Source of the DNA: Escherichia phage JK1
Strand: one strand, 5' to 3'
Length of the DNA stretch: 64,000 bases
Sequence record: MZ436830.1
Part shown: piece after piece, positions 59,727 through 62,338 of the stretch
Numbering within the stretch: the stretch's first letter is position 1
How the letters are laid out: every line of letters starts with the position of its first letter
Position numbers and translations under genes: made by a program
The notes under the pieces: model-generated
Database searches by the model: none
What the model was told of the DNA's origin: nothing
Seen by the model: the letters and a program-made list of their open reading frames with translations, nothing else

Positions 59727-60047
59727 TTATTCTTTAAATCTAATCAATTTATTCATAGACTTTGAAACTTCTGCACGAACCTCATGTAAGTTTTTAAGCT
59801 GTTCAAGACGCTGCTCATAGTAAGCAATTTCATCTTCTTCGAGACAGTCCTGTGAATCTTCTTTAAGATAACGTGCATAGTCCTGGAAAGCTTTACGGAC
59901 TACTTCCTGGAAGTCATCAAGACTTTGAATTTTCTTAGGAGCGACAGATACACGACGAGGTGCAGTATAATACTCATAACCAAACCCTGCACTTAATTGA
60001 GCCATTAGTATTTTTCCTCTGGTTGGAACACTGCACGACAAGCCCAC
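59727..60047 (-). CDS. hypothetical protein
   Basis: 106-aa ORF. Confidence 0.45.
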
Positions 60048-60307
60048 ATACTGGCTTCTTTGAGTTTCGTTTTAGCAATAGTTAACTGATCGAGGCTTTC
60101 GGCGTAATTCTTCGCGAGTTCATCATCTTCACAGCTATCAAATGCTTCCCAAAATTCATCGTATAAAGCATCAAAGATAAGTCCTAAACGAACTTCAGCG
60201 TCTTTAATAGCATTTACTTTACCGATTTTTTCGTCGGTATGTGGCTTATAACCTTTAATATCTTCAATCATATTTGACTTCCTCACCAGTACATAAATCG
60301 TATTCAA
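60005..60307 (-). CDS. hypothetical protein
   Basis: 100-aa ORF. Confidence 0.45.
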
Positions 60308-60854: not shown

Positions 60855-61235
60855 TCAATTAGAAAATAAATTTATCCAAGATTGTTCTTTAATTAAAAAT
60901 GGCTCAGAATCATATGCCATTAAACTTTGGGTAATTAATCCTTTAAAAGGTCCATCAATAAATTCCATGGTAAAATATGGAATTTTATTCATTAGCCGTG
61001 CATTAGGAGCAGTGCACAAAACTCTGCATCCTTTGAATATACCTTTTTGTAATTTGTATTGCTTGGGATAAAATTCGCTCAAAGTGTTATTATTTGCCAA
61101 AATTTCAAAATGATTCACCAATTTATTTTTAATAGTTTTTGGCGAAAAATAAAGATATTCGAAAAGCTGAGTGTCTGTCATCATTGCATTCCAATCACAA
61201 AAAATTGAGGACGAGTAATACCACCAATGCAACAT
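60855..61235 (-). CDS. hypothetical protein
   Basis: 126-aa ORF, start uncertain. Confidence 0.4.
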
Positions 61236-61723
61236 TTACTATTACAGCAGTAGTGTACAGTGTCAATATGGACGCTATAAATCTTATCCATATCAGGAGA
61301 TTTGACAGGCTCATCAATTATATACAAAATTCGCGAAAGCGATAAACCTCTGAACTTACTTCCTTTATTACCAATAAAACTGCGCACAGAATCAGTAAAT
61401 AAACGAAAACGTATATCATCATTAGAATAACGCGAAAATTCCTTTTTAATGTTATTTGCAGAAATTTTAGCGTAAGCTGAAGTATTAGAAAGAACAATAA
61501 CTGTTCCGCCATCATACAGCCAATTAGCAGCAAAGTTAGTCACAGCAATTGATTTACCAGATTGACGTCCACCATCTAGTCGAAGTGTACAATATTCTTT
61601 AAATAAATGCGACGAATCAGGTACATAAAATCCACTATTACAAATTTCTTCTACTCTAGCATCAGAATGGTGTGTAAAAGCATTCATCAGGGATAGATAA
61701 GGACCAGTTAAAAATGTTCTCAT
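61181..61723 (-). CDS. small P-loop NTPase
   Basis: Walker A GGRQSGKS, Walker B ILYIIDEP; start trimmed to MRTFL. Confidence 0.5.
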   Translation of the reverse strand: MRTFLTGPYLSLMNAFTHHSDARVEEICNSGFYVPDSSHLFKEYCTLRLDGGRQSGKSIAVTNFAANWLYDGGTVIVLSNTSAYAKISANNIKKEFSRYSNDDIRFRLFTDSVRSFIGNKGSKFRGLSLSRILYIIDEPVKSPDMDKIYSVHIDTVHYCCNSKCCIGGITRPQFFVIGMQ

Positions 61724-61864
61724 TTTATTCTCTCTAAATTTGGGCCATTCCGTGGCGCATGAATTGTCCATTTCTGTATTTACCCATTACCGCACTCAGG
61801 CTCGACCTTATCACAGGTTGGCGGGAATCCCTCACAGAATCATGAGGTCCAGCTTGTTCCCATA

Positions 61865-62338
61865 TTATTTGAACGATTTAACGTACTGAATAGAACCTTT
61901 ACTATTCACAAAGGCAATTTTACCATTTTTATTATACATGGTAGCAGTACGTTGATAACCATAAGTTTGTTTACCAGATTGATAACCAACTAATGCGAAA
62001 TTATCTTCGCCCATTTTATTCTGTTTAGCGCGAATGCGTTCATGACCATGTGCCATAAGAACCTTAGCATCACCGGTTGCAATGGATCGACGAGTTTTTT
62101 CATCTTCAACTGTATTAACAAAGTCGTCAAATGAATCAAATTTAGCATGAGATTTATTATACAGTTTTCCATCTACTGCATAATTATATCCCTGTACATC
62201 CATCTCAACTTCTGTACCATCATCCAATACAGCAGTGATTTTTTGACCTTTTTTAAATTTCAAAAGATCAGTAAAAGATTCAGCAATAATTTGAGAATTA
62301 ATAGCTGCTTCAGTGATAAATTCTTGATATGTTTTCAT
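61865..62338 (-). CDS. internal protein with capsid-targeting sequence
   Basis: N-terminus MKTYQEFITEA typical of T-even internal protein CTS. Confidence 0.6.
   Translation of the reverse strand: MKTYQEFITEAAINSQIIAESFTDLLKFKKGQKITAVLDDGTEVEMDVQGYNYAVDGKLYNKSHAKFDSFDDFVNTVEDEKTRRSIATGDAKVLMAHGHERIRAKQNKMGEDNFALVGYQSGKQTYGYQRTATMYNKNGKIAFVNSKGSIQYVKSFK

Follow-up and report, generated by a model that had tools for sequence, protein, structure and literature searches.

We judge it very likely that the minus-strand gene at positions 61181-61723 of a 64,000-nucleotide stretch of Escherichia phage JK1 (sequence record MZ436830.1; the whole stretch is referred to here as the window) is the ortholog of T4 vs.8 and encodes a free-standing, single-domain, RecA-like ATPase of the additional-strand catalytic glutamate (ASCE) class, homologous to subdomain I of the terminase ATPase. 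The identity and the fold of Vs.8, taken together, are the part of this assignment in which we place the greatest confidence. Vs.8 descends from the terminase ATPase core and would work in a similar way, but it is not a terminase or a packaging enzyme, because ATPase subdomain II and the nuclease domain are absent. Directly upstream of the gene lies a GC-rich element that is probably a genuine structured RNA of a new class.

Identity and start of vs.8

The window is part of a Tequatrovirus (T4-like) genome, and the 2 kb around vs.8 are 96-99% identical to many T4-like phages of Escherichia, Shigella and Yersinia. Vs.8 of the window shares 88% identity with T4 Vs.8 (NP_049732.1) across the whole 180-residue core, and orthology is assigned because of this identity together with the shared gene order e-denV-IP-vs.8-vs.7-vs.6 (IP, internal-protein gene, the placement of which in T4 is described below). 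In PHROGs, the protein matches family 1488 (unknown function) with an E value of 3.5e-78.

The open reading frame found mechanically extends over 61181..61771 on the minus strand and would encode 196 residues; the supported start is at 61723 (MRTFL..., 180 residues), where the Met is the start in most homologs of the family alignment and is preceded, 6 nt upstream, by a Shine-Dalgarno-like AGAGAG run (61730-61735). The 48 nt upstream of this start are conserved as nucleotides, but the window and T4 read them in different frames, so the extension is not conserved as protein; positions 61724..61771 are probably not translated as part of Vs.8. The T4 annotation differs in that it gives Vs.8 219 residues, with about 39 extra N-terminal residues translated from the conserved non-coding element in another frame, and the frame of this N-terminal extension is likewise not conserved. 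The first-pass annotation, made from the letters of the window, had drawn a gene of about 180 residues at 61181-61723, and the homolog starts, the upstream AGAGAG run and the non-conserved upstream frame bear these coordinates out. The features of the gene are as follows.

61181..61723, minus strand: vs.8 coding sequence, 180 residues plus TGA stop, ortholog of T4 vs.8 (open reading frame list, T4 identity, PHROG match, homolog starts)
61724..61771, minus strand: in-frame upstream extension of the mechanical open reading frame, holding the AGAGAG run and the 3' end of the RNA element
61550..61576, minus strand: Walker A (P-loop) DGGRQSGKS, residues 50-58 (sequence, invariant columns, hhalign)
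61346..61351, minus strand: invariant Arg125-Gly126, aligned with R245-G246 of the T4 terminase gp17 (family alignment, terminase large subunit (TerL) alignment, hhalign)
61310..61330, minus strand: Walker B strand ILYIIDE, residues 132-138 (sequence, hhalign, predicted beta-strand at residues 132-137)
61229..61249, minus strand: Cys cluster CCNSKCC, in columns that are variable in the family, adjoining a disordered loop at residues 163-169 (predicted local distance difference test score, pLDDT, < 50)
61184..61192, minus strand: C-terminal Gly-Met-Gln after the last beta-strand (G178 and Q180 invariant; strand predicted at residues 173-177)

Conserved motifs

Conservation was read from a family alignment of 23 homologs with 41-84% identity to the window protein. 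Invariant in all of them are D50, G51, G52, R53, Q54, S55, G56, K57, R114, R125, G126, E138, G178 and Q180. The stretch GGRQSGKS (residues 51-58) fits the Walker A pattern GxxxxGK[ST], and in Walker B the residue E138 is invariant and position 137 is either Asp or Glu; because the Walker A block and E138 are invariant in the 23 family members, the Walker motifs stand far beyond chance. Both motifs named in the first-pass annotation, GGRQSGKS and ILYIIDEP, are thus read in the sequence and conserved across the family. The CCNSKCC cluster to which it also drew attention is present in the window protein but not conserved family-wide: it lies in variable columns, is confined to close relatives among the 23 homologs and has no family-wide significance. 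A reading of this cluster as a conotoxin was rejected, given a Pfam match under the cut-off and the lack of conservation.

Fold and homology to the terminase ATPase

The ASCE proteins are the class of P-loop enzymes with a catalytic Glu after Walker B. An AlphaFold2 model built with the family alignment (pLDDT 83, predicted template-modelling score 0.84) has strands alternating with helices in a RecA-like ASCE fold built on a parallel sheet, with one disordered segment at residues 163-169. The structural neighbours at the top of the Foldseek lists are all RecA-like ASCE domains, comprising domain 1 of superfamily 1 and 2 (SF1/SF2) helicases, RecD, and the ATPase domains of the T4 gp17 and P74-26 terminases; kinases and zeta toxins are not found among the neighbours listed. 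The Walker motifs thus come together in a P-loop fold in the predicted structure, as the first-pass annotation had anticipated, and its call of a P-loop NTPase holds on the motifs and the RecA-like model.

Because structure alone does not separate helicase domain 1 from terminase, we compared sequence profiles with hhalign, using a Vs.8 family profile of 32 sequences and a TerL profile of 20 T4-type ATPase domains. The results against the two terminase targets and the two controls are given below as hhalign probability, E value and aligned columns.

T4-type TerL ATPase profile: 97.7%, E 1.8e-12, 120 columns, from before Walker A to past Walker B
Single gp17 sequence: 90.1%, E 1.6e-6, 110 columns
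T4 Dda (SF1 helicase), control: 34%, E 4.2e-4, 47 columns, Walker A surroundings only
T4 thymidine kinase, control: 3%, E 0.013, 35 columns

The alignment places Vs.8 R53/Q54/K57/S58 on gp17 R162/Q163/K166/T167, R125/G126 on R245/G246, and D137/E138 on D255/E256, where the Glu is the catalytic one; gp17 K166, R162 and E256 are catalytic residues. The P-loop Arg-Gln and the pre-Walker B Arg-Gly columns are also invariant or nearly so in the TerL alignment. A PHROG terminase large-subunit family appears as a secondary match to Vs.8 (E 2.1e-5), and further sub-threshold matches are to AAA_14 and AAA_30 in Pfam and, marginally, to HerA in PADLOC.

In the P74-26 terminase, R139, 11 residues before the catalytic Glu, is an arginine finger acting in trans, and the Protein Data Bank (PDB) entry of the R139A mutant is among the structural neighbours listed. 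The spacing of R125 to E138 in Vs.8 is similar, with the Arg-Gly about 12 residues ahead of Walker B. R125 is accordingly a candidate arginine finger, and because its spacing resembles that of P74-26, Vs.8 may be oligomeric.

Relative to gp17 (610 residues; PDB 2O0H; Pfam Terminase_6N), Vs.8, with 180 residues, lacks the N-terminal region (gp17 residues 1-140), ATPase subdomain II and the RNase H-like nuclease domain; its fifth strand is the last. The gp17 TTT motif at 285-287 lies beyond the end of the hhalign alignment, and Vs.8 ends with the invariant G-x-Q after its last strand. Judged by position, this strand would correspond to the one that bears the TTT coupling motif in gp17, and the C-terminal GMQ would stand in place of that motif. 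The two genes also differ in location: that for gp17, the real terminase gene, is elsewhere, and vs.8 lies in an early accessory region. SF1/SF2 helicases (domain 1 of DEAD-box proteins, RecD and T4 Dda) share the general fold and give the best raw structural scores; they have two tandem RecA-like domains, and the 180 residues of Vs.8 have room for one. The earlier remark that the protein is too small for a helicase or a terminase is therefore right for a complete terminase, but the protein is nonetheless a homolog of the terminase ATPase core.

Gene neighbourhood and distribution

Along the minus strand, the genes run in the order nudE, e (lysozyme), denV, an internal-protein gene (DUF7412), vs.8, vs.7, the GrcA-like vs.6, vs.5, vs.4, vs.3, regB and vs.1. 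The neighbours that bear on vs.8 are the following.

61865-62338, minus strand: internal-protein gene (DUF7412) with the capsid-targeting start MKTYQEFI, between denV and vs.8
60855..61184, minus strand: vs.7, 109 residues, the ATG of which overlaps the vs.8 stop (ATGA, 4 nt)
60005-60271, minus strand: vs.4, downstream in the same cluster as vs.8
59727-60005, minus strand: vs.3, downstream in the same cluster as vs.8

The gene had been placed between the internal-protein gene and the GrcA-like gene. The internal-protein gene is indeed its upstream neighbour, but vs.7 intervenes before the GrcA-like gene. T4 differs upstream, where denV directly precedes vs.8 and ipII and ipIII lie between e and denV instead; the e-denV-internal-protein region is rearranged among close relatives. 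The early-region location and the ATGA overlap with vs.7 are shared with T4 vs.8. Among 35 related loci, 34 have a start codon that overlaps or adjoins the vs.8 stop, and 27 have a vs.7 homolog as the next gene downstream. The ATGA overlap suggests translational coupling of vs.8 and vs.7, and from these two counts Vs.7 is the best candidate for a Vs.8 partner within the T4-like phages. Few full-length homologs of Vs.7 were found, many database copies are truncated or frameshifted, and its AlphaFold2 model is poor (pLDDT 57).

Farther downstream, vs.4 of the window matches the Acb2/Tad1 sponge family in Pfam (E 9.4e-20), and vs.3 is the ortholog of T4 TadIV-1 (PMC13243611). vs.8 heads this cluster (vs.8-vs.3), which contains two known immune-signal sponges, Acb2 and TadIV-1.

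With tblastn, vs.8 was found in 1,009 of 50,697 phage records, all of them T4-like phages of Enterobacterales, and a profile search of 1.84 billion representative proteins returned only 52 clusters, all of small proteins. Some copies of vs.8 are split: in phage SV76, for example, the match is broken into three pieces. Such fragmented copies fit a dispensable accessory gene.

Published work on Vs.8

The terminase-like nature of Vs.8 was already published in 2026, and the finding is known in kind and largely in substance; the present analysis arrives independently at the terminase homology and adds Dda and thymidine kinase as controls. [quoted passage not shown] Co-expression of T4 or PhiC120 Vs.8 with the terminase sensor EcAvs2 was toxic, and Vs.8 was modelled in the terminase pocket of EcAvs2 with a bridging ATP; its role was left open by the authors, perhaps that of an anti-defence protein that Avs2 learnt to recognise (PMC13601566). 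Other non-terminase activators of Avs2, Ksap1 and Ksap2, are small, lineage-restricted phage proteins with a terminase-ATPase-like sheet and with their own function unknown (PMC11564622, PMC13601566); they come from other phages and are likened to Vs.8 here by published description only. Among Avs2 activators of this kind, only Vs.8 has terminase sequence homology with intact Walker motifs (PMC13601566). In separate work, the T4 vs.8-vs.3 segment was cloned and each gene was expressed from 'the promoter of vs.8', and type IV Thoeris was inhibited by Vs.3 (TadIV-1) only (PMC13243611).

Proposed function and alternatives

We propose that Vs.8 would bind ATP and probably hydrolyse it, using retained residues predicted to handle the nucleotide: K57/S58, the terminase-typical R53/Q54, D137/E138 and R125/G126. 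Because the protein has a single RecA-like domain and a conserved candidate arginine finger, it probably completes its active site by homo-oligomerising or together with a partner, either Vs.7 or a terminase subunit. Vs.8 would then be an accessory product acting on host or phage macromolecules and not in packaging, and a role in host interaction or counter-defence appears the most likely, because vs.8 heads a cluster that encodes the Acb2 and TadIV-1 sponges. From the pattern of conserved residues, we lean towards a catalytically active protein; a counter-defence role specifically is put forward tentatively. The function that the first-pass annotation had called unknown is still largely so in biological terms, but homology to the terminase ATPase core can now be assigned.

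Several observations weigh against parts of this interpretation. Structure comparison alone is without power to separate a terminase ATPase from helicase domain 1. Pfam Terminase_6N reaches only 12.6 bits against a gathering cut-off of 22, matching 16 of the 32 family members with a best E value of 1.4e-4; no Pfam, NCBIfam or PADLOC model reaches its threshold for Vs.8, and NCBIfam gives no match. Searches of PDB sequences with the single protein and with the family hidden Markov model retrieved no terminase, returning only insignificant matches to TcpA-type coupling proteins, and nothing conserved in Vs.8 corresponds to the region of the gp17 adenine-binding Gln. In a diverged subgroup (P0057, P0061, P0070 and P0071), Walker A reads G-H-[ST] instead of G-K-[ST] and the Walker B Asp-Glu is lost, so some family members may not hydrolyse ATP. 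Distant family members occur in other contexts without vs.7, for example between the topoisomerase and rIIA genes. ATP binding and hydrolysis by Vs.8 and its family are predictions. As to counter-defence, type IV Thoeris was not inhibited when Vs.8 was expressed by itself (PMC13243611), and with EcAvs2 it triggers toxicity instead of blocking the sensor (PMC13601566).

Some of the same observations lend themselves to a different account, in which Vs.8 is a non-catalytic mimic of terminase, serving as a decoy for sensors of the terminase ATPase domain (Avs1-3, Upx) or titrating gp16/gp20 before packaging. EcAvs2 recognises the very part of terminase to which Vs.8 is homologous, Vs.8 is predicted to occupy the same pocket, all motor parts are absent from it, and the subgroup without the Walker A Lys would fit a binding-only role. 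Against this, no member of the main family departs from the catalytic Glu, the P-loop Lys or either conserved Arg, which argues for selection on catalysis, and the toxicity with EcAvs2 means that the sensor is activated, with no block; we regard mimicry without catalysis as unlikely. The general fold and the raw structural scores would also accommodate a nucleic-acid-dependent ATPase of the helicase kind, a single RecA-like domain that would oligomerise or join with Vs.7 and remodel RNA or DNA in the early phase of infection. The second RecA-like domain needed by every SF1/SF2 helicase is absent, the family profile matches T4 Dda at 34% and around Walker A only, compared with 90-98% for terminase, no nucleic-acid-binding motif was identified in Vs.8, and the Vs.7 model is too poor to interpret, all of which leaves us distinctly sceptical of a helicase-like activity.

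A small-molecule or protein kinase, or an enzyme resembling zeta toxin, had been suggested in the first-pass annotation and is compatible with the size of the protein and the presence of Walker A. The Asp-Glu conserved in Walker B is typical of ASCE ATPases, neither type of enzyme occurs among the listed structural neighbours, no Pfam kinase or Zeta_toxin family matches at E <= 1 except CobU in 2 of 32 members, and the family profile matches T4 thymidine kinase at 3%, so the suggestion fails on each of these points and is very improbable. Even less credence is due to the notion that Vs.8 is an endoribonuclease, which derives from the label 'putative endoribonuclease' in records such as those of JLBYU31 and teqskov: Vs.8 matches neither RegB nor any other nuclease family, and the genuine regB, about 1.5 kb downstream, matches REGB_T4 at E 5.9e-69. 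The label looks like one that has spread from the neighbouring regB.

Public labels for vs.8 and vs.7 vary widely (OK272473, MN895437, MK962752, OM386655, PQ657791 and others), including 'endoribonuclease', 'toxin', 'terminase large subunit' and 'terminase-6 domain-containing protein'.

A probable structured RNA upstream of vs.8

Between the upstream gene and the start codon of vs.8 lie roughly 135 nt that share 90% identity with T4, although the gene upstream is a different one there, and the RNA element that they contain is strongly conserved in Salmonella phage STML-198, the Vs.8 of which is 43% identical. Searching with a nucleotide profile showed that the great majority of the 35 IMG/VR loci obtained with Vs.8 have a single element, immediately before vs.8, and that the window has one copy. 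The parts of this copy, and the positions of other copies, are given below.

61742..61861, minus strand: GC-rich structured RNA element, directly upstream of vs.8, about 120 nt here (120-150 nt across T4-like loci)
61852-61850 / 61776-61774, minus strand: long-range helix CUG/CAG
61847-61842 / 61835-61830, minus strand: P2 hairpin
61818-61815 / 61808-61805, minus strand: P3 hairpin
61805-61787, minus strand: conserved strand UCGAGCC..GUGCGGUAA
61756-61753 / 61747-61744, minus strand: P6 hairpin
Other copies of the element: T4 L002 4297-4439; L005 3832-4011; L017 2330-2479

In four loci (L024, L025, L027 and L036, at about 1920-2500), an extra internal-protein gene (MKTYKEF...) lies between the element and vs.8, and vs.8 is preceded by a second copy of the final ~55 nt of the element; the duplicated segment looks like a recombination junction. 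The possibility that the element is a coding sequence was rejected, as every reading frame is interrupted in at least one copy and the lengths of the indels are not divisible by three.

When the copies were segmented by invariant anchors, the helices were found to change in sequence and yet to stay complementary. The long-range helix occurs in at least 11 variants, being CUG/CAG here and in T4 and CGCCGA/UCGGUG, CUCGA/UCGAG, ACAC/GUGU or ACCA/UGGU elsewhere. A second helix (AAAGG/CCUUU, AAAGC/GCUUU, AAAGA/UCUUU) crosses the long-range helix, which therefore makes the structure a pseudoknot; a third alternates between CCC/GGG and CUGG/CCAG, and two hairpins have swapped base pairs. Cognate strands gave lower duplex energies than permuted ones, permuted strands being as good in 0, 1 and 4 of 2,000 trials for the three helices.

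Pairing statistics were obtained from an unfitted MAFFT alignment of 27 distinct long-form copies and from 500 shuffles. The fraction of paired cells was 90.5%, compared with 81.3% in the shuffles (none of the 500 as high), 11 pairs were changed on both sides (again unmatched in 500 shuffles), and the covariation score was 0.253 as opposed to 0.087. Sliding the partners by 1-3 columns lowered pairing to 20-52%. The copies of the window and of T4 belong to a shortened form with weaker helices.

Other approaches gave less. Folding of the element as a single sequence was no better than that of shuffled sequences (z 0.36), and RNAalifold on a plain MAFFT alignment returned fragments only. No Rfam model matched the element even at E values up to 10, E. 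coli genomes contain no copy of it, a text search of the literature for the core sequence found no paper, and no sigma-70-like promoter was seen near the T4 copy. A resemblance to the specificity domain of RNase P RNA, suggested by a shared GUGCGGUAA, was dropped when the comparison with E. coli rnpB scored no better than shuffled sequences.

Occurrence of the RNA beyond T4-like phages

The core of the RNA consists of the hairpin CCUGUAAYAAGG followed by UCGAGCC...GYGCGGUAA, enclosed by the same covarying helices, and in unrelated phages it carries an outer closing stem. Copies of the core were located as follows.

L045 1465-1620: Vequintavirus isim, next to a tRNA cluster
L046 1470-1560: Pseudomonas phage PsgM04F, inside a tRNA cluster
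L047 1455-1570: the 45-kb coliphage Ivi
L053, L063, L069, L076, L079, L085: copies in further unrelated phages, several of them metagenomic contigs of about 46 kb

Within the stretches fetched, no vs.8-like gene was found in these phages. Read by eye, with no scan run there, the Ivi copy is preceded by a promoter-like TTGATA...GATTAA and followed by a GC-rich hairpin with a T run. These flanks suggest a stand-alone small RNA.

In T4-like phages, the RNA might control the vs.8-vs.3 accessory and anti-defence cluster in the manner of a riboswitch or a protein operator. Alternatively, by analogy with the phi29 packaging RNA and its ATPase, it might work with the terminase-like ATPase. We consider it improbable that the RNA is functionally linked to Vs.8 or to its operon.

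Implications

As a gene, vs.8 is an ordinary ortholog of an accessory gene already catalogued in T4, and most of the value of the analysis is corrective: the terms 'endoribonuclease', 'toxin' and 'terminase large subunit' in public records are incorrect or misleading, the 219-residue T4 annotation includes a non-coding element, and the idea of a kinase or zeta toxin can be dropped. The adjacent RNA deserves its own follow-up; its confirmation would mean that a phage genome regarded as fully charted still holds one more structured RNA, and a widespread one. Vs.8 represents a terminase-derived ATPase core that is kept by about 1,000 T4-like phages and is able to set off a bacterial terminase sensor, and knowledge of its function would explain why a phage retains a protein that puts it at a disadvantage in hosts with Avs2.

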